Source: an uncultured Candidatus Brevefilum sp. (GTDB taxonomy: Bacteria > Chloroflexota > Anaerolineae > Anaerolineales > Anaerolineaceae). Taken from it: DNA of 64,000 bases. This document shows, in pieces, positions 21,129 through 64,000 of this stretch. Each line of letters starts with the position of its first letter. Within the stretch, counting starts at the first letter, position 1. The stretch spans positions 22,443 through 86,442 of the forward strand of contig CAZLEK010000001.1 in assembly GCA_964558525.1 (NCBI GenBank), read 5' to 3'. A program made the translations under genes and the position numbers. The notes below the pieces were generated by a model. It searched no databases. It was given only the letters and a program-made list of their open reading frames with translations, and was not told the DNA's origin.

Positions 21129-21605
21129 TCAATCGCTCTGGCAGGACAGGATGCCGAGGAGATGCAGGCGATGGTTCAACATGCGAGAAGCCACAATGTT
21201 TGCCAGCCTACGCATTATGATGAAACCCAGGTTGCAATCCAACTCACAGACGGCCATCAGCCTGTCAGCCGGAAAAGTGAGCAGGTTGGCGCGCTCCAAA
21301 ACACGGGCGGTGCTGGTTTTTTGCCTTACCACGGGAGTCAGGCTGGACCAACCGATGACATCCAAAGATTCAGCTGTCAGGATCGGCAGTGAGCCATGCC
21401 CCGGGACGTAGCTTTCAAGACACACCCGTCCTTCCAGGATGATATACAGGAAGGGATGCTGTTCGCCTTCTGAAAAAATGACGTCGCCTCTTTCGTAGGT
21501 GCGAATTTCCGCGATCTTGGTTAAACGCTGAAGGCTGTCTGGGGCCAGTTCCAAGAACCAGGGAATGGTCTTTATTGTGGATGTCAAATCAGCCTGATTA
21601 AGCAT
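21129..21605 (-). CDS. Stand-alone cyclic-nucleotide-binding-domain protein
   Basis: 158 aa with a cNMP-binding beta-barrel pattern (GDVIFSEGEQHPFLYIILEGRV...). No HTH or other output domain follows. Confidence 0.8.
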   Translation of the reverse strand: MLNQADLTSTIKTIPWFLELAPDSLQRLTKIAEIRTYERGDVIFSEGEQHPFLYIILEGRVCLESYVPGHGSLPILTAESLDVIGWSSLTPVVRQKTSTARVLERANLLTFPADRLMAVCELDCNLGFIIMRRLANIVASRMLNHRLHLLGILSCQSD

Positions 21606-22280: not shown

Positions 22281-23708
22281 CTAATCCCGTTGGAGGGTCT
22301 GAAGCACTTTGCCTTCAGGGTCCAATACATCGATTTGGATTGGCATTTGGCCAATCGCATGTGTGGAACAGGAGAGGCAGGGGTCGTAGGCGCGAATGGC
22401 GGCCTCCACCCGGTTGAGCATGCCCTCTTGAACCTGAGGTCCTTTGACGTAGGTTTTCGCAACGGAATCCACCGCTTCGCTCATCGCCCAGTTGTTGTGG
22501 CCGGTGGAGACGATCAGATTGACCCGCTCGAGCTGGCCGCTGGGTTTGGCTTTGTAATGGTGGAACAAAGTGCCGCGCGGCGCTTCGATCACGCCTACGC
22601 CCTCGCCTTTGAAGTTAAATTTCTTATTGAGGATGTCCTTGCTCAAAATATCCGGATCTTCCAGGAGTTCGCGGGTCCGTTCAACAGCAAAGAGGGTTTC
22701 GATCAGGCGGGCATAATGGTAGTACAGGGTTTGCGGGACGGGTTTGCCGCCATTGATCTGCCGGTAAACCTCGAACTCTTTTTGCGCCAGGGGCGTATCG
22801 ATTTTGTCAATCGCATTCAAACGTCCCAGGGGGCCCACCCTGTAGACGCCTTCCGGCCAGCCCATCTTTTTGTAATATGGGAATTTGAGATAGGACCAAT
22901 CTTCGACATGCTCAGATACTATCTCCAGGTAGTCTTGAGCGTCAAAACACTCAAGCTGCTTCCCGTCTTTGTCGACGAGCCGAATGTTGCCTTCGTAAAG
23001 CTCCAACCCATTTTCAGGCGTCACCAGGCCAAAATAGCCTGTGTCAAAGACAGCGAATTTTTCGACATCTTCAATATTGGCATCGGCCCAATCTTTGATC
23101 AGTTGGATCCCGATCAAAGTGGTTTCCTGGGCTTTTTCGAGGCCAGCGCGCATATGATCACGTTTTTCTTCAGTCAGGGCCCGATTGACCCCGCCAGGTA
23201 CGGCGAAGTTCGGGTGGATCCTTCGGCCGCCCACCTGGTAAATGATGTCCTGCCCGAATTTTCGCAGTTGTACGGCTCGTACGGTCAGGTCCGGGTCAGC
23301 GCCGATCAAACCCACGACATTGCGAGTAGCTGGTTCGGCATCAAAGCCCAAGATCAAATCAGGTCCGGCGAGTTCGAAGAAATGCATGCCGTGGCTCTGG
23401 ATGATCTGTCCCATGTGCATGAGTTCACGCAGCAGGGAGGCTGGACGAGGCGGTTCCACACCCATGACGATATCGCCAGCTTTGGCGGCGGCAAGGTGAT
23501 GGCTTACCGGGCAGATCCCACAAATGCGAGGTGTGATCTGCGGCATTTCAAACACCATGCGCCCTTCACAGAATTTTTCGAAGCCTCGGAATTCGTTGAC
23601 ATGGAAATAAGCATGGTCAACAGCGCCGTCATCATTCATATGGATGGTGACCTTGGCGTGACCTTCAATTCGGGTCACTGGTTCAATGGTTATTTTTTCA
23701 GTTGCCAT
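22281..23708 (-). CDS. hoxH: NiFe hydrogenase large subunit, bidirectional group-3d-like
   Basis: [10 protein letters not shown] (N-terminal ligands) and [10 protein letters not shown] (C-terminal ligands) plus a tail of about 25 aa for endopeptidase cleavage. The ATG at 23708 is preceded by AGGAGA. Confidence 0.95.
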
Positions 23709-23718
23709 AAGTTTTCTC

Positions 23719-24261
23719 CTAGTGCCAGTGCAGTTTTTCATCTTTAATGTCTGGGATGCGGCCCTGGGCCAGCTCCGTCAGCGCATAAAAGATCACATCT
23801 GCATCGGGGGGACAACCGGGGATGTGCAGGTCTACTTTCACAACCTCTTGGACTGCACGCACCCGGGTCATAACTGCTAATTCAGGCGATGAGGGAATTT
23901 TGCCTTCTTGGTCATTGCTCTCCGCCTCAATATAGGCTCGTTTAAGGGCAGCATCCACGCCCACGAAGTTGCGCATGGCAGGAACGCCGCCGAAAACCGC
24001 GCAGTCTCCCAGGGCAACCAGGAATTTGCTGCGTGCGCGCATCTTTTTGGCGACCTCCTCGTTATAGGTATTGTTGATCCCACCTTCGAGGATTCCGACG
24101 TCCACGCCATCCTCATCCGGTTCTTTCAGGTCAGTGATGGGGGTCGATCGCAAATCCACCAGTTCCACAACCTGCAAGATACGTTCATCAATATCCAGGA
24201 TGGACATATGGCAGCCAGCGCAACCACACAACCAATCCGTTGCTACTTTAGGTTTTGACAT
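23719..24261 (-). CDS. hoxY: NiFe hydrogenase small subunit (HoxY type)
   Basis: 180 aa with WLCGCAGCHMS proximal-cluster motif and GCPP. Confidence 0.9.
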   Translation of the reverse strand: MSKPKVATDWLCGCAGCHMSILDIDERILQVVELVDLRSTPITDLKEPDEDGVDVGILEGGINNTYNEEVAKKMRARSKFLVALGDCAVFGGVPAMRNFVGVDAALKRAYIEAESNDQEGKIPSSPELAVMTRVRAVQEVVKVDLHIPGCPPDADVIFYALTELAQGRIPDIKDEKLHWH

Positions 24262-28399: not shown

Positions 28400-30184
28400 T
28401 CAGACAATCTCAATGGCATCATAGGGACAGAGCTGTTCACAGATGCCGCATTTAATACAAATGTCAGGGTCAATCACATGCGTCTGGCGGCGCTCACCGG
28501 AGATGGCGTCCACGGGGCAGTTCCTGGCGCAGAGTGTGCAGCCCGTGCACGGCCCGTCTTGGATTTCAAAGCGGATCAGCGCTTTGCAGACCTTAGCCGG
28601 GCAGCGCTTCTCAAAAATATGGGCTTCATATTCGTCCAGGAAATGCTCCAGGGTGCTCTTGACCGGGTTGGGAGCGCCTTTCCCCAAACCACATAGACTG
28701 TTTTCGTTGATCTGATCGCAAAGCATCCGCAGGGTGTCAATATCTTCCGGGACCCCTTTGCCTTCGCAGATGCGGGTCAGGATCTCCAGGATGCGGCGGG
28801 TGCCTACCCGGCAGGGGGTGCATTTTCCGCAGCTTTCATCCTGGGTGAACTCCATGAAAAACCGGGCGATGTCGACCATGCAGGTGTCTTCGTCCATGAC
28901 AACCAGACCGCCGGAGCCGAGGATCGAGCCGGCTTCCGCCAGGGCTTCGTAATCCATTGGGAGGTCCAGGTAAGCTTCCGGCAGGCATCCCCCCATGGGA
29001 CCGCCGGTTTGGACAGCCTTGAACCGCTTGTCTTCTTTAATGCCGCCGCCGACATCATAGATGATCTCTCTCAGGGAGATCCCAAAAGGGACCTCGATCA
29101 GGCCGGTGTTCTTGACGTCGCCAGCCATGGAAAAAGTTTTGGTGCCGGTGCTTTTTTGATAGCCCAGGCTGGCAAACCATTCGGCGCCCTTCAGGATAAC
29201 CTGCGGGACAATGGCATAAGTCTCCACGTTGTTGATATTGGAGGGTTGGTCCCATAGGCCTTTCTGCGCCGGGAAGGGCGGACGAGGGCGAGGTTCGCCG
29301 CGCTGACCCTCAATGGAGGCCATCAGCGCAGTCTCTTCGCCGCAGACGAAAGCCCCCGCACCCATGCGCACTTCAAGATCAAATGAGAAGCCGGAACCGA
29401 GGATGTCCTCGCCCAGGAGGCCAAAGCTGCGGGCCTGTTCGATGGCGGTCTTCATCGTGCGGACGGCAATCGGGTATTCCGCCCGACAGTAGATGTACCC
29501 CTGGTGGGCGCCAGCGGCATAGGCCCCAATGATCATGCCTTCGATCACGGCATGGGGGTCGCCTTCCAGTACCCGGCGGTTGGCAAAGGCGCCTGGGTCG
29601 CCCTCATCGGCATTGCAGATCATGAATTTTTGATCGCCTTCGGCAGTGCGGATAAAACGCCACTTCAGGCCAGTGGGAAAACCTGCGCCGCCTCGGCCGC
29701 GCAGGCCGGAATCCAATACTTCCTGGATGGTCTCTTCCGGGGTCATTTCAGTCAGGGCTTTGCCCAGAGCCAGGTAGCCATCCCGTGCGATGTATTCCTC
29801 AATATTAAAGGGATCGATTTCCCCGATATTCTTTAAGACGATCCGGACTTCTTTGGCCTGCGGTGCGGACAATTCTTCATCAACCACCGCTCTGGCCTCC
29901 TGGATGTATTGTTCCGCGACACGTCCTTTGAGGAAATGCTCTTCCACCAGGAAGGGAACATCATCTACCGATAAATTGGTGTAGTGAACCGCTTCAGGGT
30001 AGACCATCAGGTCCGGACCCATGACGTCAGGATCCCCGATGCGGGAGGTTTCCAGCACCTGAATCTCATCAACCAGGCCTTGTTTGACCAGCTCATCCTG
30101 AAGCGCGTCAATCAGATCGTAGGCGCCTTTTTGGACGCAGACGGGATCGACGGATACGAGGACATGTGAACGAAAATAAGCCAT
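28400..30184 (-). CDS. NuoF-like flavoprotein with a C-terminal 2x[4Fe-4S] domain (HndC/HydB type)
   Basis: Paralog of hoxF (shared GLRGRGGAGFPTGLKW, GEPRPRPP and ESCGKCTPCR blocks) with an added tail: CTGCTLCARNCP...CIKCGICEQLCP. Confidence 0.9.
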   Translation of the reverse strand: MAYFRSHVLVSVDPVCVQKGAYDLIDALQDELVKQGLVDEIQVLETSRIGDPDVMGPDLMVYPEAVHYTNLSVDDVPFLVEEHFLKGRVAEQYIQEARAVVDEELSAPQAKEVRIVLKNIGEIDPFNIEEYIARDGYLALGKALTEMTPEETIQEVLDSGLRGRGGAGFPTGLKWRFIRTAEGDQKFMICNADEGDPGAFANRRVLEGDPHAVIEGMIIGAYAAGAHQGYIYCRAEYPIAVRTMKTAIEQARSFGLLGEDILGSGFSFDLEVRMGAGAFVCGEETALMASIEGQRGEPRPRPPFPAQKGLWDQPSNINNVETYAIVPQVILKGAEWFASLGYQKSTGTKTFSMAGDVKNTGLIEVPFGISLREIIYDVGGGIKEDKRFKAVQTGGPMGGCLPEAYLDLPMDYEALAEAGSILGSGGLVVMDEDTCMVDIARFFMEFTQDESCGKCTPCRVGTRRILEILTRICEGKGVPEDIDTLRMLCDQINENSLCGLGKGAPNPVKSTLEHFLDEYEAHIFEKRCPAKVCKALIRFEIQDGPCTGCTLCARNCPVDAISGERRQTHVIDPDICIKCGICEQLCPYDAIEIV

Positions 30185-30219: not shown

Positions 30220-30588
30220 TTATCCTTCAATCTGATAGTCTTTGACGATCTCACCTTCGAGAACGTGTTCTTTAATCACGCGACGGGCCATGTCGGGGTT
30301 GACTTTCCCATAGGTGACTTTTTCCTCACCGGGCTTCACAACTTGCACGATCGGCTCATATGAATCCAGGCCAATATTGCCCGTCTGTCGGACGATGATA
30401 TCGCTCAGGTTCTCGTGTTCGATCAAATCCAGGATCGCTTTGAGGGTTTCACGCGCCCCTGCCGCGATGCCGACGGTGCCCATGCCCACAATGACCTCTG
30501 TCTTTCCCGAGGTTTCTTTAAGCTGCTGTTTTTTGAGGGCTTCATCGCGAATTTTTTTGAGGTCGTCTAAAGATTTTACGTTTGCCAT
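30220..30588 (-). CDS. HndB-like thioredoxin-fold protein lacking all cluster cysteines
   Basis: 122 aa with the GMGTVGIAAGA and TGNIGLDSYEP pattern of thioredoxin-like [2Fe-2S] ferredoxins, but no Cys in the whole protein. Confidence 0.7.
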   Translation of the reverse strand: MANVKSLDDLKKIRDEALKKQQLKETSGKTEVIVGMGTVGIAAGARETLKAILDLIEHENLSDIIVRQTGNIGLDSYEPIVQVVKPGEEKVTYGKVNPDMARRVIKEHVLEGEIVKDYQIEG

Positions 30589-30605: not shown

Positions 30606-31178
30606 TTATTGTCCTGTTGCTTGTTTCGATTCAGCATCCTCGCGGACAGTATGGATGCCGGTTTCGATATCCTGGCGAATGAATTTCATCACCGCGGGTT
30701 CGGAAAGGGGCAGCCCCATCAGGGTTTCCTTGATCGGTTCGTCGTCGAACACAAAACGCTGCTGGTCTACCCGGTATTCGAAGATCCAATGCACTTCTGG
30801 CGAGCCAATGATCAGCGTTAACAATGTGCCCGTCAGATCACCCAGGGGCATGCGGTCAATGTGGCTGTGTTTGAAGGTCGCCTCGACCGTGGTCCCCTGA
30901 CCAGGTTTGGATTGAATTGTAAAGGTCCCTTCACAGGCCTCCGCGGCTGCTTTGAAAAACGGGATGCCGAGGCCCACTTTGCGGGTCGTGCGGGAGGTCA
31001 CAAAGGGATCGGTGATCCTCGTCAGAGTCTCAGCGTTCATCCCTTGGCCGTTATCCTCAATGCGGATCCTGAGCAAATCCTCTGTCAAGTTCTCTTCCAC
31101 CAGGATCCTGATTTGATCAGCGCCTGCTGAAATGCTGTTTTCAGCGATATCAAGGATATGCAGGGCCAGTTCACGCAA
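30606..31178 (-). CDS. GHKL (HATPase_c) ATP-binding-domain protein without a phosphoacceptor domain
   Basis: HILDIAENSISAG (N box), EDNGQGM (G1) and GLGIPF (G2); 190 aa. Confidence 0.75.
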   Translation of the reverse strand: MRELALHILDIAENSISAGADQIRILVEENLTEDLLRIRIEDNGQGMNAETLTRITDPFVTSRTTRKVGLGIPFFKAAAEACEGTFTIQSKPGQGTTVEATFKHSHIDRMPLGDLTGTLLTLIIGSPEVHWIFEYRVDQQRFVFDDEPIKETLMGLPLSEPAVMKFIRQDIETGIHTVREDAESKQATGQ

Positions 31179-31179
31179 G

Positions 31180-31695
31180 TCAGGATTCCTGAGATTTGAG
31201 ATCCTGGATGGTCTTTGGGAAGCGGTTGGCTTTCACGCGGCCCTGGACCTCATCATCGACAACAATCACCGGCGCCTGGCTGCATGCGCCTACGCATCGG
31301 CAGAGCTCCAGGGTGATCAATCCGTCTTCGGTGGTCTCTCCTGGCTCAATGCCGAGGATCTGTTTGGCTTTCTCAACAATCTGGTCAATGCCGGCCACAT
31401 AGCAGGCTGTGCCCACGCAGAACTTGATGGTATGCTGGCCGCGTGGGGTGGTGGTGAAGAAGGAATAAAACGACACCACGCCGTGTATACGGCTGATCGG
31501 TTCACCCAAGCCTTCGGCGACATACACCTGCATCTCTGATGAGATGTAACCGATGGCGTCTTGAATGCCGTTGAGCACCACCATCGTGGCGCCGGGTAGA
31601 TCCTTGTTCTCATCAAGGATGCGGTCTACAAGGGCCCTTTTTGTTGGGTCCAGCAGGGCCTCGTCGGTGAATGTTTTTTCTAGTGTTTTCTGCAT
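31180..31695 (-). CDS. NuoE-like [2Fe-2S] subunit (HndA/HydC type)
   Basis: CVGTACYVAG...CRCVGACSQAP motifs; 171 aa. Confidence 0.88.
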   Translation of the reverse strand: MQKTLEKTFTDEALLDPTKRALVDRILDENKDLPGATMVVLNGIQDAIGYISSEMQVYVAEGLGEPISRIHGVVSFYSFFTTTPRGQHTIKFCVGTACYVAGIDQIVEKAKQILGIEPGETTEDGLITLELCRCVGACSQAPVIVVDDEVQGRVKANRFPKTIQDLKSQES

Positions 31696-31830
31696 CTAAT
31701 GTCATTCTCCAGGTATCGCTTGAGGTTAACAGGCGCGGTGGACTGCGATTGTGAAATTAACCACAAATGAGTTTAATCCGGCTTGATGATCTGGTCAATA
31801 CACAAATGTCATATAGAACGTGGAGAATCG

Positions 31831-32631
31831 TCAATTACGATTTTTAAGCTCAAAATCGCGCTCGTTTTCCCCCTTGAACGCCATTTTTATCTCTGCAATG
31901 GTGGGTTTTTCGATCCAAAAGCGATTGGCACCTAAAAAATCCTCCAGATAATGCACATCACCGCTCTGGATGAGCGGGAAGCTGCCTAATTGGGGGTATT
32001 TTTCAACCGCATCTTCACGAGAGATATGCCGTGAGATCTCAAGCGCGATAGGGTGCGGTTCCGGCGGTACGAAACCCAAACGGTAGATCAGTCCAAAGGC
32101 CTGTCGGTCCACATGAGCCGGGATGAAGAGCCCCCCCAGGTCGGTGACGGTCTGGTAGGCGTCTTCATAGCTCAAGCGCGTGGAATTGATCAACAAGATT
32201 TCCTTTCGGCGGATAAATTCTCCGGTCTCATCAACAATAAATTGTTCTCCAAAATAATCTATCTTATTGGGAATATCAGGCAGGGTTTTGTCAACGATCG
32301 CCTGGAGGGCCTGGATCTGCTCCAGGCGATCAAATAGACACAAGCTGTGAATTTCCTCTTCGGTTTGCAGTTCCATACCGGGCAGCACAACCAGGCTGCT
32401 GCCTTCGGCTGCCTTCATCACTGCTTGAATGTTCTCGCTGGCGTTGTGGTCGGTGATGGCGATCAGGTTGATGCCCCGTGCGATGGCATTTTGTACGATG
32501 AGCGGAGGGATCATCTCCACGCCCGCACAGGGTGAAAGGACAGTGTGCACATGGAGTTCTGCCTGAAAAGTTTTCAAGATTGGTTTTCTTTGCGTCTCTA
32601 GTCTTGTGAAGCCCTTAAACCAAGCTCCCAA
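31831..32631 (-). CDS. PHP-domain metal-dependent phosphoesterase
   Basis: ELHVHT and ITDHN motifs. The start is uncertain because the track start overlaps the upstream gene by 34 nt. Confidence 0.8.
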   Translation of the reverse strand: MGAWFKGFTRLETQRKPILKTFQAELHVHTVLSPCAGVEMIPPLIVQNAIARGINLIAITDHNASENIQAVMKAAEGSSLVVLPGMELQTEEEIHSLCLFDRLEQIQALQAIVDKTLPDIPNKIDYFGEQFIVDETGEFIRRKEILLINSTRLSYEDAYQTVTDLGGLFIPAHVDRQAFGLIYRLGFVPPEPHPIALEISRHISREDAVEKYPQLGSFPLIQSGDVHYLEDFLGANRFWIEKPTIAEIKMAFKGENERDFELKNRN

Positions 32632-32948
32632 AGCCTGCCAACGGTTTCGAAGTTGTCCGCAGGTGTGGAGAGGATCGTCACGCCCTTTTGTTCCGCCTGG
32701 GTGAGGGTCTCTGGATCGGGTTGGGCGTCTTCGGTGATGATGATGGCAGACAAATCCAGCAGGGCAGCCACAGCCACAATGTTGCTGTGCGCCATGAGGG
32801 TGATCCAGAGGCCTTCCGGGCTGGCCCCAGTCATGACGCAGCTCAGCAGGTCGGAGCAGTAGCCGCTTTTGACCTGCACAGCCGACAAGTCTGTACCCTG
32901 GGTGAGAATTTCTAGGCCAAGTTGATCGATAATTTCCTGGAGGTTCAT
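32598..32948 (-). CDS. DRTGG-domain protein
   Basis: 116 aa with CSDLLSCVMTGA...LWITLMAHSNIVAVA, typical of stand-alone DRTGG proteins. Confidence 0.72.
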   Translation of the reverse strand: MNLQEIIDQLGLEILTQGTDLSAVQVKSGYCSDLLSCVMTGASPEGLWITLMAHSNIVAVAALLDLSAIIITEDAQPDPETLTQAEQKGVTILSTPADNFETVGRLWELGLRASQD

Positions 32949-32978
32949 AAGCGCTTTCTTAAATTTCTATTACGGAGG

Positions 32979-33950
32979 TTAGGCAACAGTCTGGGGGTTG
33001 TTGTCGGTGTCATTAAGGTACATGATCATATACAAATTGGTGCCGCGTTCCTGGGAAGAGATCAGACGCATTTCGTCCACGCAGCGCTTGATATTGACCA
33101 AACCCATCCCAGCGCCAAAGCCCATCTCGCGTACCTCGTTGGTAGCGGTGGAGTAGCCGGGCTTCATGGCCAGTTCGACATCCTCAATGCCAGGTCCGTT
33201 ATCATAGGCTTCCATGGTAATCTTGTGGGGTTCGATCTCCACCCGCAGGGTGCCGCCTTGATCGGTATGGATGATCAGGTTCATCTCCGCTTCGTAAACA
33301 GCGATCCCGCAGCGCCGGGCGAGTTGGGGCGCCGCGCCCAGACGTAACAGGGCGCGTTTGATATTGCTGGAGGCGTTGCCCCCGTGAATAAAATCGCCTT
33401 TTTGGATGTCATAGCGCAAGATCAGGCTGGTCCGATCGGAGACGATGTCTTCAAAGAGGTGGCTGGCACGGTAGCGGATCAATTCTTCAGCGTGATAATC
33501 TCGCTGCAGGGCAATTAACAGGCCGTTGGAGATGTCGCCTTTGGTAATGATCCCGGCCAGGGAGCCATTTGTATTTAAAACCGGCAAACGTCCGTACTTC
33601 GTTCGGTTAAAAGTCTTGAGGGCTTCCACCACCGGGTCAGACTTTCGCACCGTGGCCAGGTCGGTGCTCATATAATCTCGAACCTGAGCGGAAAGGTTCT
33701 TCTCACGCAGGGCTCGGATCAGGTCTTCAATGCTCAGGATGCCGATCAATTCATCATTTTGAAGCACCGGGGCGCCAGAAAAACGCTCCTTTTGGAAAAT
33801 GTCCAGGGCGGTTTCCATCTGCATGTCTGGGGAGAGGGAATACACCTCTTCCGTCATCACCTCATGGATGCGCAGTTCATAGGCCAGCTCTTCGGCTCGG
33901 GTGACCGTTTCGGCGCTTTTATCGGAAATGGTGGGGGTTTTGGAGGCCAT
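32979..33950 (-). CDS. CBS-pair plus SpoIIAB/RsbW-like GHKL serine kinase domain protein
   Basis: Two CBS repeats in the N-terminal half. The C-terminal half has EAEMNLIIH, DNGPGI and GFGAGMGL boxes. Confidence 0.8.
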   Translation of the reverse strand: MASKTPTISDKSAETVTRAEELAYELRIHEVMTEEVYSLSPDMQMETALDIFQKERFSGAPVLQNDELIGILSIEDLIRALREKNLSAQVRDYMSTDLATVRKSDPVVEALKTFNRTKYGRLPVLNTNGSLAGIITKGDISNGLLIALQRDYHAEELIRYRASHLFEDIVSDRTSLILRYDIQKGDFIHGGNASSNIKRALLRLGAAPQLARRCGIAVYEAEMNLIIHTDQGGTLRVEIEPHKITMEAYDNGPGIEDVELAMKPGYSTATNEVREMGFGAGMGLVNIKRCVDEMRLISSQERGTNLYMIMYLNDTDNNPQTVA

Positions 33951-33966
33951 GGGTTAAACGGTTTCC

Positions 33967-34359
33967 TCAGGCACAGTCGTCTTGGGTTTGGGTTTCCAGG
34001 CTTGGCAGGCCGGCCTGAAATAGGATGCCGCAGGCGTCATACAGGCCGTGGGTCGTGGTGACCAGGGGGATGTCCTCCTGGTTGGCCAGATCGATGGTTT
34101 CCTGGGCGGGGTTCTTGCCGCGGATGAAGATGATGGCGTGAATATCGGCAATCAGGGCGGTCCGTACGACCTGGGGGTTGCACAGCCCGGTCAGCAGGAT
34201 CGATTCCGGTTTGATTGAGGAGAGCACATCACTCATCAGGTCTGCGCCCATCGCCCCGGCGATCTCTCTGCCGTCTACAGCCTGATCTGTCAGCACTTTT
34301 CCGTTAATGAGTTGAATGATTTTGCTTAATTTCATCTTTTCCTTCTTTAATTTGATCAC
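33967..34359 (-). CDS. DRTGG-domain protein
   Basis: 130 aa with GADLMSDVL...ILLTGLCNPQVVRTA. An alternative start lies at 34335. Confidence 0.72.
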   Translation of the reverse strand: MIKLKKEKMKLSKIIQLINGKVLTDQAVDGREIAGAMGADLMSDVLSSIKPESILLTGLCNPQVVRTALIADIHAIIFIRGKNPAQETIDLANQEDIPLVTTTHGLYDACGILFQAGLPSLETQTQDDCA

Positions 34360-34669: not shown

Positions 34670-35947
34670 ATGGCAGAAATTGTGCGCAGTGTCAAAGGAA
34701 CCCGGGATTTTTACCCTGAGAATATGGCCGTCCGGCGCTGGATGTTTGACCTCATCCGGGAGGTGTCGACACGCTTTGGCTACCAGGAATACGATGGGCC
34801 CTGTCTGGAATTTCTGGAGCTGTATGCCGCCAAGTCTGGCGAAGAGCTGGTTCAGGAGCAGTCCTTCGTGTTCGATTCCCCGGGGGATGACCGGCTGGCC
34901 CTGCGCCCTGAGCTGACCCCGACCCTGGCCCGGATGGTGGCCCAGCAGCAGTATGCGATCCCCTTCCCGATGCGCTGGTGGTCAATTGGGCCTTTTTGGC
35001 GCTATGAAAACCCCCAGCGCGGGCGCACCCGGGAGTTTTACCAGTGGAACATCGACCTGGTGGGGACGGAAAGCGTTGCTGGGGATGCGGAAATGGTGGC
35101 GATTGCTGCCTCCTTCTTTAAAGAAACCGGACTTTCACCTGATCAGGTGCGGATTTACGTTAACAACCGGCGCTTGATGGACGAAGCCTTCTCGACCCTG
35201 AAGATCCCAAAGAGCTTGCGCCCGAAGGTGTTCCGCATTGTAGACAAGCTCGATAAGCTCTCGGAAAAAGCGTGGCGCGCCTTCGCGCTAGATGCCGGCC
35301 TGTCAGAAATCCAGGTCGACGGCCTGCTAAAGCTGCTCAACAACGCTGCTTTGTGGCAGGATTCGAAGGAATTGGTGGCCTTCTTTGAGCTGATTGAGGC
35401 TTTTGGAGTGAGAGAGTACGTTGAATACAACCCCAAGGTGATCCGCGGGCTGGATTATTACACAGGGACGGTCTTTGAAGCCTTTGAGTTGGGCGGCCAG
35501 TCCCGGGCGATCCTGGGCGGCGGACGCTATGACAACCTGGTTTCAGATGTGGGCGGGATGCGCCTGCCGGGCGTCGGCTTTGCCATGGGGGATGTGGTGA
35601 TTGAGCTGGTGCTGCGGGATGCCGGGGTGATCCCTGAGCGGCTGGGGAACCAACCGCAAGTGATCGTGACTGTCTTTGACGATGAGAGCCTTCCAGCCTC
35701 TTTGGCGGCCGCCAGGGAGCTTCGGGAGGCCGGTTTCCGGGTGATAGTCTATCCCGAAGCGGATAAACTGGGCAAGCAGTTCAAATTCGCCGACCGGCTG
35801 GACGTGCCCGTGGCAGTGATTTTGGGGCCGGATGAGCTGCAGGGGGGCAGGGCGGCGGTTAAGAACCTCAAGACGCGCGAGCAGGAGACGGTTGACCGGG
35901 AGAGCCTCACCGGCCAGATCGAAAAATTCTTGCCTTCGACCCCTTGA
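34670..35947 (+). CDS. hisS: Histidine--tRNA ligase
   Basis: Class II motifs (GTRDFYPE, LRPELT, GGGRYDNL) and an anticodon-binding C-terminus; 425 aa. Confidence 0.95.
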   Translation: MAEIVRSVKGTRDFYPENMAVRRWMFDLIREVSTRFGYQEYDGPCLEFLELYAAKSGEELVQEQSFVFDSPGDDRLALRPELTPTLARMVAQQQYAIPFPMRWWSIGPFWRYENPQRGRTREFYQWNIDLVGTESVAGDAEMVAIAASFFKETGLSPDQVRIYVNNRRLMDEAFSTLKIPKSLRPKVFRIVDKLDKLSEKAWRAFALDAGLSEIQVDGLLKLLNNAALWQDSKELVAFFELIEAFGVREYVEYNPKVIRGLDYYTGTVFEAFELGGQSRAILGGGRYDNLVSDVGGMRLPGVGFAMGDVVIELVLRDAGVIPERLGNQPQVIVTVFDDESLPASLAAARELREAGFRVIVYPEADKLGKQFKFADRLDVPVAVILGPDELQGGRAAVKNLKTREQETVDRESLTGQIEKFLPSTP

Positions 35948-62905: not shown

Positions 62906-64000
62906 CTAATCCCTTTGAATCTCTTCGATGAGTCTGCGCTGATGGTCAAAGAGCTTAATCTGGAGCGGCGTCTCACCGGGTTGGGCATGTGTGGCGCATC
63001 CCATGCAGGGATCGTAGGCTCGGAAAGCCATCTCAATTTTGTTGAGGGCGGTATCCGTGACCGGTTCCCCAGCTTTGATCAGATCTTTGGCAGCTTTCAC
63101 GATGGACATGTCGATCGCGGCATAATTATTGGTGGTCCCAACGATCAGGTTGACCGCCTGCACGAGGCCGCGTTGATCGGTTTTGTAGTGGTGGGTCAGG
63201 GTGCCGCGGGGGGCTTCAACAATGGCGATGCCCTCGGTTGGGATCTCTGTGGGAATGGTGTGTACTTTAGGATCGGTGATGGACTCGTCCGAAGCCAGTT
63301 CTGCAGCCCGTTCCGCTGCGTAGAGCAGTTCAATCAGGCGCGCCCAGTGTGTGGCCAGGGTGGAGTGCACCGGCTTTCCGCCCAGCGTAGCGAAGAACTT
63401 CTCATACATGGCCTGGGCTTCAGGCGTTGTCATACCATCAGCTGTATTCAAACGGGAGAGTGGTGAAGCCCGGTAGACGCCGCTTTCGGGGCCGTCCACA
63501 AAACCCTTCCAACCAATGTCTTTGAGGTAGGGAAATTTCAGATATGTCCAGGGCTCAATATGTTCAGAGATCACGTCAAGGTATTCTTCGGGGCTGTATT
63601 TGACAAATTCTTCCCCGTCGGGGCCGACCACCCGGACCTGGCCGTCATAGAAATTAATTAGGTTGTTTTCGTCCACCAGGCCCATGTAGTAGGTTTCGTG
63701 GGCGAAAGCGTCACTGGTGATCATGTCAACATATTCTTTGTTGCCAAGAACAATTTCATCAAACAGCTGCAGTGATTCTTTAGCAAAGGCAACCGAACGT
63801 TCTGCCCGTTCCAGGATCGCCAGGCGGTCTTCTTCGGTGATCGGTTTGCTGACGCCGCCAATAATTGCGCTGACGGAATGGATGTAGCGTCCGCCGATGA
63901 TCGCTGCAATCTCGTGGTTGTCCTTTAGCATCTGCATGACCTTGCCGCCGATCTCTTTACCAACCTTGCGGACCACGCCCAGGATGTTGCGTTCGGATTT
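62906..64000 (-). CDS. Second NiFe hydrogenase large subunit, C-terminal part (5' end outside the window)
   Basis: C-terminal ligand motif DPCMGCATHA plus a tail of about 26 aa. The frame is open to the window edge; the track ORF begins at an internal Met. Confidence 0.9.
   Translation of the reverse strand, partial: KSERNILGVVRKVGKEIGGKVMQMLKDNHEIAAIIGGRYIHSVSAIIGGVSKPITEEDRLAILERAERSVAFAKESLQLFDEIVLGNKEYVDMITSDAFAHETYYMGLVDENNLINFYDGQVRVVGPDGEEFVKYSPEEYLDVISEHIEPWTYLKFPYLKDIGWKGFVDGPESGVYRASPLSRLNTADGMTTPEAQAMYEKFFATLGGKPVHSTLATHWARLIELLYAAERAAELASDESITDPKVHTIPTEIPTEGIAIVEAPRGTLTHHYKTDQRGLVQAVNLIVGTTNNYAAIDMSIVKAAKDLIKAGEPVTDTALNKIEMAFRAYDPCMGCATHAQPGETPLQIKLFDHQRRLIEEIQRD

Follow-up and report, generated by a model that had tools for sequence, protein, structure and literature searches.

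The [FeFe] hydrogenases of group D (M2e), e.g., TTE0887, Csac_1857, and Cthe_0335, are putative sensors whose genes are located near protein kinases and upstream of bifurcating hydrogenases (Carere et al. 2012). TamHydS has been characterized; a histidine-kinase-like ATPase flanks it, and the signal transduction route was posed as an open question (Land et al. 2020). In the NiFe-HydABCSL operon of Acetomicrobium mobile, HydD, HydP, and HisK are not parts of the enzyme (Feng et al. 2022; Schut et al. 2022), and the "hypothetical" Tte0891 was carried along in a synthetic operon (Kelly et al. 2015). A Chloroflexi preprint shows a "CBS domain-containing protein" in group 3d contexts. Analysis of a 64,000-nucleotide stretch of DNA from an uncultured Candidatus Brevefilum sp. 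(GenBank assembly GCA_964558525.1, contig CAZLEK010000001.1, positions 22,443 to 86,442; hereafter the window) revealed a gene cassette encoding two stand-alone DRTGG proteins (DRTGG-A and DRTGG-B), a kinase with a CBS pair (CBS-kinase), and a PHP esterase. This cassette is followed by the genes of a NuoE/NuoF-type flavin module, among which an orphan GHKL ATPase is encoded, and by those of a NiFe hydrogenase. Neither the DRTGG and PHP members nor the cassette as a unit are described in the literature searched on DRTGG or PHP/CBS proteins and hydrogenases, which mentions kinases, HisK/Tte0891, and a "CBS domain-containing protein" in operon maps only in passing.

We lean toward the explanation that these four genes and the orphan GHKL ATPase gene form one conserved modular signaling cassette for NuoE/NuoF-type (HydBC/Bfu-type) flavin modules, which would be CBS-sensed here and would have a post-translational output. 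The predicted invariant core of the cassette consists of a SpoIIAB/RsbW-type kinase domain, two DRTGG paralogues, a PHP esterase, and a small MutL-like GHKL ATPase. This explanation builds on domain identities, conserved catalytic residues, synteny, phyletic coupling, gene fusions, and sensor swapping, all of which were observed, and it predicts the output, which may be post-translational or run via Rex.

Comparison with described systems

The clusters of the group D hydrogenases (TamHydS of Thermoanaerobacter mathranii, TTE0887, Csac_1857, and Cthe_0335) share with this locus a position at the head of a NuoE/HisK/HydD/NuoF-type operon, upstream of the trimeric HydABC, and the literature notes kinases between the sensor and the enzyme. 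Metagenomic loci with an Fe-S/H-domain-like sensor fused to the same kinase subfamily have the same DRTGG/kinase/DRTGG/PHP/GHKL order. In contrast to the group D clusters, the cassette here accompanies a NiFe enzyme and has a CBS pair in place of the hydrogenase-like sensor, with an adenosyl ligand, and not H2 or redox state, as the likely input. The literature searched does not discuss its DRTGG and PHP members, and TamHydS is likened to the cassette by position.

The SpoIIAB-SpoIIAA-SpoIIE and RsbW-RsbV-RsbU/P modules resemble the cassette in their HATPase_c_2 Ser/Thr kinase with N, G1, and G2 boxes, in the small alpha/beta partners encoded beside this kinase, and in a dedicated phosphoesterase encoded in the same operon. 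They differ in that the partners here are DRTGG and not STAS proteins and the esterase is of the PHP and not the PP2C type. The cassette furthermore has no sigma factor, encodes an extra MutL-like ATPase, and has a kinase that bears a sensor domain, and the phosphorylation of the partners is putative. As the initial annotation of this DNA had stated, the cassette contains no STAS, sigma factor, or DNA-binding gene. A sigma or DNA-binding gene was not recurrent in the 80 loci surveyed below either; rex is adjacent in 5 to 6 of them. A canonical pair of a STAS protein and an RsbW-like kinase is encoded on contig C4 (C4:34540-35255), and an orphan STAS gene is located on contig C91 (C91:5493-5804).

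Both DRTGG proteins were matched best, in sequence and in fold, by the CBS-DRTGG-CBS insert of CBS-pyrophosphatases (Protein Data Bank [PDB] entries 3l2b and 3l31). In this insert, the CBS and DRTGG modules reportedly act jointly as an adenine-nucleotide sensor. Here, in contrast, CBS and DRTGG reside on separate polypeptides, the regulated domain is a protein kinase instead of a DHH pyrophosphatase, and the DRTGG proteins persist in cassette versions that lack CBS domains.

HisK/Tte0891 of Caldanaerobacter subterraneus and Acetomicrobium mobile (HydABCD/NiFe-HydABCSL) is encoded by an orphan HATPase_c gene between NuoE-like and HndB-like genes, like the gene at 31178..30606 of the window. The protein is absent from the purified enzyme and was assumed in the papers to be regulatory or maturational. 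The papers treat it as an isolated hypothetical gene, whereas the likeness drawn here by operon map is to a fifth cassette member with a MutL-like two-domain fold. In HfsABCD/HydS systems (Thermoanaerobacterium and Ruminococcus albus), sensory hydrogenase-like proteins and a Ser phosphatase govern a hydrogenase, with a known genetic phenotype. Compared by description, these systems differ in having a PAS-containing HydS and the serine phosphatase HfsC, with no described DRTGG, PHP, or CBS component. HPr kinase/phosphorylase, a metabolic Ser kinase, shares the DRTGG fold in its N-terminal domain (matches to Pfam Hpr_kinase_N; Foldseek matches 1knx and 1ko7), but its kinase domain is of the P-loop and not the GHKL type, and the resemblance is uninformative on mechanism. 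An identity as an anti-phage defense system was rejected, as none of the five proteins had a PADLOC match.

Gene order and distribution of the cassette

A scan with one genome per species revealed relatives of the kinase in at least 597 genomes, and the best 80 loci were kept. The six-frame open reading frames (ORFs) of these loci were searched with the window proteins; 43 loci have at least 8 kb on each side and are referred to as full loci. The same gene order recurred in the 80 loci, which span >15 phyla (Chloroflexota, Desulfobacterota, Fidelibacterota, Planctomycetota, Cloacimonadota, Bacteroidota/Ignavibacteria, Acidobacteriota, Gemmatimonadota, Nitrospirota, Atribacterota, Verrucomicrobiota, Spirochaetota, Thermotogota, and others). 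The recurrence of one order in 80 loci of so many phyla places the arrangement far beyond chance. DRTGG-B was found in 41 of the 43 full loci, PHP in 38, DRTGG-A in 34, and the GHKL ATPase in 31. NuoE, HndB, and NuoF together were present in 34 of the 43. The conserved co-occurrence with NuoE/NuoF and hydrogenase genes, the lack of which would have refuted the initial annotation by its own account, is clear. At least one DRTGG gene lies beside the kinase gene nearly everywhere, even in the PHP-less loci L022, L029, and L053 to L057. In the class formed by L038 to L046 and L050, and in many phyla, the five genes are positioned inside the operon, between the NuoF and NuoG-like genes.

The nine full loci without NuoF are L024, where another NiFe hydrogenase is adjacent, and eight loci of Spirochaetota. 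A search of unlinked Spirochaetota genomes revealed NuoF-like genes elsewhere in 10 out of 10, which speaks neither for nor against an action in trans. Neighboring genes were scanned in three Spirochaetota loci (L061, L067, and L075). In all three, the CBS-kinase, DRTGG, and PHP genes are immediately preceded by a gene for a Cof-type HAD phosphatase, and both the GHKL ATPase and redox genes are missing within 10 kb. Further upstream of the HAD gene, L067 and L075 also have genes for a hexapeptide transferase and a DRTGG protein.

The initial annotation had described a four-gene unit. On comparative grounds, the cassette comprises five genes, including the orphan GHKL ATPase gene. The gene for this ATPase is positioned immediately after the PHP gene in many loci, and PHP and HATPase_c form a single polypeptide in L089 and L091. 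When the phylum was sampled evenly (401 genomes), the full-length GHKL ATPase and the kinase were found in an identical set of 17 genomes, with a distance of 1.1 to 2.8 kb between the two genes in 16 of these. The chance of such an exact overlap would be 1 in C(401,17), or approximately 10^-30, if the genomes were independent, which the 17 genomes, falling within 11 genera, are not. Because it follows PHP, is fused to PHP, and occurs in the same 17 genomes as the kinase, the orphan ATPase was assigned to the cassette. Fusions and co-occurrence likewise tie together the kinase/DRTGG pair and the PHP/GHKL pair.

Catalytic partners of the cassette

The initial annotation had considered attachment to a NiFe rather than an FeFe enzyme to be special. 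The survey revealed that this attachment is common: a NiFe catalytic partner was present in at least 17 of the 43 full loci, a lower bound given that the loci end 10 kb downstream, and an FeFe partner in 3 (L058, L064, and L069), as well as in L035 and L079. An FdhA-type molybdopterin protein is the partner in L001 and L057, and the L050 class encodes a 1,087-amino-acid 2Fe-2S and HdrA-like flavoprotein followed by MvhD and NiFe subunits. With catalytic partners as different as NiFe, FeFe, formate dehydrogenase, and Hdr-like enzymes, the cassette tracks the NuoE/NuoF (Bfu/HydBC-type) flavin module and not the hydrogenase as such. The module of the NuoF/HydB-like subunit is the probable functional partner or target. 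Within the phylum, a related NiFe large subunit was found in 106 of the 401 genomes, and the cassette was restricted to one large-subunit clade, being present in 9 of 10 genomes at ≥61% identity and in 0 of 8 at 54 to 58% identity.

L001, a Brevefilum metagenome-assembled genome, contains the closest relative found (75% identity). There, the cassette and a double NuoE/NuoF are followed by the gene for a 919-amino-acid NuoG-FdhA-type molybdopterin protein (L001:17810-20566); at the corresponding position, the window has a 636-amino-acid NuoG-like gene and then the NiFe genes. Two genomes of the same genus (G086 and G158) yielded no related NiFe large subunit. A swap of the catalytic module thus appears to have taken place among close relatives. 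In L025, the genes for NuoE/HndB/NuoF and the cassette are directly followed by one for a BfuA-like 2Fe-2S N terminus fused to an amidohydrolase domain (L025:16986-19067), which is an unusual third module for a Bfu-type enzyme. The NiFe large-subunit genes of several other Chloroflexota genomes (e.g., G088, G151, and G326) contain one or two in-frame TGA codons, compatible with putative selenocysteine-containing NiFeSe enzymes.

The CBS-kinase and its exchangeable sensor

The CBS-kinase gene is single-copy in the genome. Its product matched Pfam CBS twice (E value, 1.7e-29) and HATPase_c_2 with 33.1 bits (cutoff, 27.4), so both parts of the annotated fusion lie above the Pfam curated cutoffs; HATPase_c was matched as well. 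The closest named kinase is SpoIIAB (TIGR01925, E value of 1.1e-13, under its cutoff; PDB entry 1til). An alignment of 38 diverse full-length homologues (30 to 64% identity) revealed invariant residues in the GHKL N box (E220, E222, and N224), the G1 box (D250, G252, and G254), and the G2 box (G277 to G283, GFGAGMGL). The boxes quoted in the initial annotation (YEAEMNLIIH, DNGPGI, and GFGAGMGL) are present in the kinase and fall on these invariant columns.

The pattern G-h-h-[ST]-x-x-D is the adenosyl-ribose-binding pattern of CBS domains. The motifs GILSIED and GIITKGD match this pattern, and G70 and G133 are ≥90% conserved. The ribose-binding motif is thus kept in both CBS stretches, in agreement with the adenosyl-binding CBS pair that had been annotated. 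The input of the CBS pair is most likely an adenosyl ligand, i.e., energy charge; both this ligand and the substrate of the kinase are predictions.

The nearest paralogues of the kinase domain (48 to 52% identity) form the N termini of proteins of 520 to 560 amino acids. These proteins add 2x[4Fe-4S], a short region that resembles the [FeFe]-hydrogenase H-domain and has Cys at four H-cluster ligand positions (VCP, ACP, and ACxxGC), and a C-terminal Fe-S motif. In this Fe-S version, the gene order is DRTGG-A-like, kinase-FeS, DRTGG-B-like, PHP, and HATPase_c. Proteins of the L088 type (P0213, P0215, and P0221), which combine the kinase, a short [FeFe]-hydrogenase-like domain, and a C-terminal PF04060 Fe-S motif, would be sensor hydrogenases physically joined to their own kinase. 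In P0219, a DRTGG domain is fused directly to the kinase (hhalign, 98%); the downstream genes encode DRTGG, a PHP-HATPase fusion, NuoE, an HndB-like protein, NuoF, a NuoG-like protein, MvhD, and NiFe subunits. No Fe_hyd_lg_C-type gene was found in the cassette of the window, where the kinase carries the CBS pair instead.

The sensor is accordingly described here as a plug-in: the kinase of the window has a CBS pair, and other lineages have either an Fe-S domain resembling [FeFe] hydrogenase or a DRTGG domain fused to the kinase. In a quick tree of the short kinase domain, the Fe-S-fused kinases formed one clade and the CBS-type and DRTGG-fused kinases were scattered, a hint that suggests repeated sensor exchange. 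The sensory role that had been ascribed to the cassette is reinforced, because the same kinase core is paired with CBS, Fe-S, or DRTGG domains.

The DRTGG proteins

DRTGG-A and DRTGG-B are paralogous, with an hhalign probability of 99.8%, and share a D-L-x-S motif and a Thr that ends the next strand. In the 31-sequence family alignment of DRTGG-A, residues D32, S35, L38, L47, and Q55 are invariant. The invariant residues of DRTGG-B are Y30, D33, L35, S36, W48, T50, N56, and A85, and H54 is 97% conserved. The AlphaFold2 model of DRTGG-A (predicted local distance difference test [pLDDT], 93.6) is an alpha/beta domain. Superposition by Foldseek revealed AF1212 (PDB entry 2ioj) as a structural relative (template modeling score of 0.75; E value, 1.1e-7), and further fold matches were the DRTGG insert of CBS-pyrophosphatase and the N-terminal domains of Mur ligases, HPr kinase, and LpxD. 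The idea of DRTGG as a STAS analogue was rejected by fold. The invariant Ser (S35 in DRTGG-A and S36 in DRTGG-B) is located at a helix N terminus, and the conserved Ser-Asp aligns with the family-wide GDRSD region of AF1212, a DRTGG protein from outside the cassette.

The PHP protein and the orphan GHKL ATPase

Across 38 homologues of the PHP protein, the metal ligands H9, H11, D43-H44-N45, E69, E74, H77, H155, E180, D207, and H209, along with S15/C17, show little or no variation. As in the kinase, the active-site residues are conserved. Among solved structures, the closest relative is the PHP domain of Endonuclease Q (EndoQ; PDB entry 5zb8; E value, 2.5e-15), with which the PHP core alone aligns (EndoQ residues 5 to 233); the 248-amino-acid protein has no extra domains. 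Searching the PDB with the PHP profile to an E value of 0.1 also revealed RNase AM-type and pAp-type esterases, TM0559, PolC, YcdX, and HisJ, and no chain named as a CpsB/YwqE-type protein phosphatase. Two identities were rejected: that of a CpsB/YwqE-type protein-tyrosine phosphatase, to which there is no specific similarity, and that of a full Endonuclease Q, whose zinc finger and C-terminal DNA-binding domain are missing. The substrate of the PHP protein is likewise a matter of prediction.

In the orphan GHKL ATPase, residues N14, D42, G44, G69, G71, G95, D108, and G113 are invariant, as are the N, G1, G2, and G3 boxes, and the C terminus contains a conserved H-x-D-x-x-P-x-G motif. The model of this protein (pLDDT, 92.9) was matched over both domains by the N-terminal ATPases of MutL, PMS2, and MLH1, whereas the CA domains of histidine kinases matched merely the first ~100 residues.

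Organization of the locus

The coordinates of the features are listed in Table 1. Four co-directional ORFs are located on the minus strand where the initial annotation had placed them, and its domain assignments lie above the Pfam curated cutoffs for the two stand-alone DRTGG proteins (cutoff, 25.2 bits) and for PHP (cutoff, 26.4 bits). The DRTGG-A ORF is open back to GTG 34359 (130 amino acids as originally called), and the PHP ORF was originally called at 266 amino acids. Comparison with homologues corrected these starts to ATG 34335 (MKLSKII) and TTG 32577 (MKTFQAELHVHT), respectively. The apparent gene overlap of the initial annotation vanishes with the starts at 34335 and 32577, and the gaps between the four genes are then 16, 30, and 20 nucleotides (nt).

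Table 1 Features of the cassette locus (positions in the window)
Feature	Position	Strand	Description
DRTGG-A	33967..34335	minus	Stand-alone DRTGG-fold protein, 122 amino acids from ATG 34335; Pfam DRTGG 28.9 bits
CBS-kinase	32979..33950	minus	323 amino acids; CBS pair (~residues 25-145) and SpoIIAB/RsbW-type GHKL Ser/Thr kinase domain (~195-312)
DRTGG-B	32598..32948	minus	Second stand-alone DRTGG protein, 116 amino acids; Pfam DRTGG 37.9 bits
PHP esterase	31831..32577	minus	PHP-family metal-dependent phosphoesterase, 248 amino acids from TTG 32577; Pfam PHP 35.4 bits
Sigma-70-like promoter match	31770..31798	minus	TTGACC, 17-nt spacer, TAAACT; 9/12 in consensus scan; weak alone
Rex-operator-like palindrome	31749..31766		TTGTGAAATTAACCACAA; 3 nt past the -10 hexamer, 53 nt ahead of the NuoE-like start codon
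NuoE/HydC-like [2Fe-2S] subunit	31180..31695	minus	Pfam 2Fe-2S_thioredx, E value 2.3e-43; the flavin module accompanied by the cassette starts with this gene
Orphan two-domain GHKL (MutL/GHL-like) ATPase	30606..31178	minus	190 amino acids; Pfam HATPase_c and HATPase_c_3
HndB/HydD-like small protein	30220..30588	minus	Always accompanies the NuoF-like gene; homologues adjoin NuoF in 34/43 full loci
NuoF/HydB-like flavin mononucleotide (FMN) subunit with C-terminal 2x[4Fe-4S] domain	28400..30184	minus	Pfam Complex1_51K, NADH_4Fe-4S, and Fer4

The PHP gene is separated from the NuoE-like gene by 135 nt. After this gap, the NuoE-like, orphan HATPase_c, HndB-like, and NuoF-like genes are followed by a second NuoE/NuoF pair and a NuoG-like gene, beyond which the genes for the NiFe small and large subunits and a protease and the hyp genes are located. 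The hisS gene is positioned at 34670 and is divergent from the cassette. Within the 3.0-Mb genome, the cassette, orphan ATPase, HndB, and NuoE/F genes were found at this locus alone.

A gene for a 158-amino-acid protein in which a cyclic-nucleotide-binding domain only, and no helix-turn-helix, was detected (21129-21605, minus strand) lies between the hydrogenase protease gene and hypA; its product may provide the locus with a further small-ligand input. A second gene for a NiFe hydrogenase large subunit, with 43 to 44% identity to the gene at 22281-23741, is located at ~62909-64000 (minus strand) and runs off the end of the window, and the small subunit of this second enzyme is encoded just outside the window (genome C1:85351-87787).

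Proposed signaling function

In the proposed mechanism, ligand occupancy of the CBS pair would set the activity of the kinase, which would then act on the DRTGG proteins, or bind them in an ATP-dependent way, in the manner of a partner switch. The PHP enzyme and the GHKL ATPase would reset this state. The state would be relayed post-translationally to the hydrogenase flavin module and would complement the NADH-dependent control by Rex at 31749-31766. The initial annotation had proposed a post-translational kinase/phosphatase switch that responds to energy charge and acts on a hydrogenase subunit. The conserved active sites, the CBS motif, and the co-occurrence support this interpretation in part. 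Two further parts of it are not supported: nothing was found that points to a hydrogenase subunit as the kinase substrate, and the label "phosphatase" is unproven for a PHP protein that is closest to Endonuclease Q and to nucleotide or RNA esterases.

Several observations weigh against this signaling function. The PHP protein is nearest to EndoQ and to RNase AM-type and pAp-type esterases and not to known PHP protein phosphatases, and the orphan GHKL ATPase is nearer to MutL-type clamps than to a kinase. No STAS protein was among the Foldseek matches of the DRTGG-A model, and the conserved Ser-Asp of the DRTGG proteins gives no specific evidence of a phosphosite, because the motif is family-wide and present in AF1212. 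The orphan STAS protein encoded on C91 could be the true substrate of the kinase, acting in trans. A promoter-like site and a Rex-like operator part the cassette from the structural genes. Finally, eight Spirochaetota loci and L086 to L088 have the cassette with no redox genes within 10 kb.

A more far-reaching version of the proposed function is a partner-switch-like phospho-relay of an undescribed kind, in which DRTGG proteins would take the place of STAS and PHP that of PP2C, with a MutL-like ATPase as the effector and plug-in sensors for energy charge (CBS) or H2 (H-cluster). Such a relay would directly gate the NADH/FMN module of electron-bifurcating enzymes alongside Rex. We consider this version possible and put it forward tentatively.

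The Rex-like operator and transcription

The signaling cassette might instead have a transcriptional output, in which a DRTGG protein or the kinase binds the NADH-sensing repressor Rex in the manner of an anti-sigma factor. Such binding would modulate the repression at the operator ahead of the NuoE-like gene, and the promoter would integrate energy charge (CBS) with NADH/NAD+ (Rex). We regard this output as rather unlikely, yet the promoter-like site and the Rex-like operator that separate the structural genes from the cassette make it a live alternative. The palindrome TTGTGAAATTAACCACAA, which directly follows the promoter-like site, is the sole site with ≤2 mismatches from the Rex consensus in the 64-kb window, where 0.24 such sites were expected by chance. 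Its position is conserved in six related loci: an equivalent site precedes the post-PHP NuoE gene by 23 to 38 nt in L003, L004, L006, L007, and L009 and by 160 nt in L020. Other lineages have the Rex-like site upstream of DRTGG-A. The genome encodes an ordinary Rex homologue of 208 amino acids. Five loci of several phyla (L052, L058, L064, L069, and L079) have rex immediately ahead of DRTGG-A in the same orientation, with a stop/start overlap in L058 and L064, and L074 has a rex fragment at the contig end, ~1.3 kb upstream. However, the Rex of this genome is encoded on another contig (C33) among unrelated neighbors, and rex adjacency was seen in only 5 to 6 of the 80 loci. A search with a chimeric Rex and DRTGG query retrieved ordinary Rex proteins and no fusion of the two. 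A Rex-only output also leaves unexplained why cassette genes occur amid structural genes and why the GHKL ATPase is so strictly coupled.

The structural genes are probably under their own Rex-controlled promoter here, and the cassette may be transcribed separately, from the region shared with hisS. No terminator was found in a scan of the region between PHP and NuoE, and searching the leader and the gaps for riboswitches and known RNAs revealed one sub-threshold chance match, within the kinase gene. The sequencing runs found to contain this sequence are all DNA metagenomes, and the transcriptional coupling of the cassette to the structural genes is uncertain.

Non-signaling explanations

A different reading of the same proteins is an ATP-dependent machine for assembly, repair, or cofactor supply of the NuoE/NuoF module, with the ATPase as a clamp or chaperone, a PHP enzyme that processes a nucleotide-type cofactor or inhibitor, and DRTGG and CBS domains that bind nucleotides. 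The fold of the GHKL ATPase, closest to MutL/GyrB-type clamps, and the relationship of the PHP protein to nucleotide and nucleic-acid esterases fit such a machine, as does the resemblance of the DRTGG fold to the UDP-binding N-terminal domains of Mur ligases and LpxD. The set furthermore follows the flavin module regardless of the catalytic subunit, and HisK and HydD are missing from the purified enzyme, as expected of maturation factors. We nevertheless judge this explanation improbable. The central SpoIIAB-type kinase with exchangeable sensors is typical of signal transduction and not of maturation, the cassette was found in 17 of the 401 phylum genomes compared to 106 with related NiFe hydrogenases, and stand-alone copies exist far from redox genes.

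The full-length match of the PHP profile to the Endonuclease Q PHP domain (E value, 2.5e-15), the match of the ATPase to the MutL N-terminal domain, and the PHP-ATPase fusion of L089 and L091, which recalls the MutL layout of an ATPase plus a metal nuclease, would also be expected of an ATP-gated nuclease. An EndoQ-like PHP protein and a MutL-like ATPase would then act on RNA or DNA (e.g., in the processing of the operon mRNA), with the kinase and the DRTGG proteins as regulators. This is very improbable, given that the EndoQ zinc finger and C-terminal DNA-binding parts are lacking (248 versus ~400 amino acids), that a nucleic-acid-binding domain was not found anywhere in the cassette, that defense-system models gave no match, and that the placement in a redox operon has no obvious tie to nucleic-acid repair.

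An independent housekeeping unit that merely lies beside the hydrogenase genes and is co-regulated with the divergent hisS side, as the 135-nt gap that follows the cassette and holds a separate promoter-like site and a Rex-like operator and the divergent adjacency of hisS in several Anaerolineae relatives might suggest, is barely credible because it is contradicted by the comparative data, i.e., by NuoE/NuoF synteny across more than 15 phyla with hisS adjacency only in close relatives and by the exact phyletic coupling with a GHKL ATPase gene inside the structural operon.

Biological implications

The cassette is the CBS-sensor variant of a widespread, experimentally unstudied regulatory system. 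Electron-bifurcating hydrogenases and their relatives set the balance of H2, NADH, and ferredoxin in anaerobic communities and in biofuel strains. For the sensors of group D, the comparative data name candidate signal partners, namely, the kinase, two DRTGG proteins, the PHP esterase, and the MutL-like ATPase. Since the sensor can be swapped for a CBS pair, these data imply that energy charge, besides H2 and redox state, feeds the same switch. In the organism studied here, the cassette probably tunes the enzyme to the energy state of the cell.

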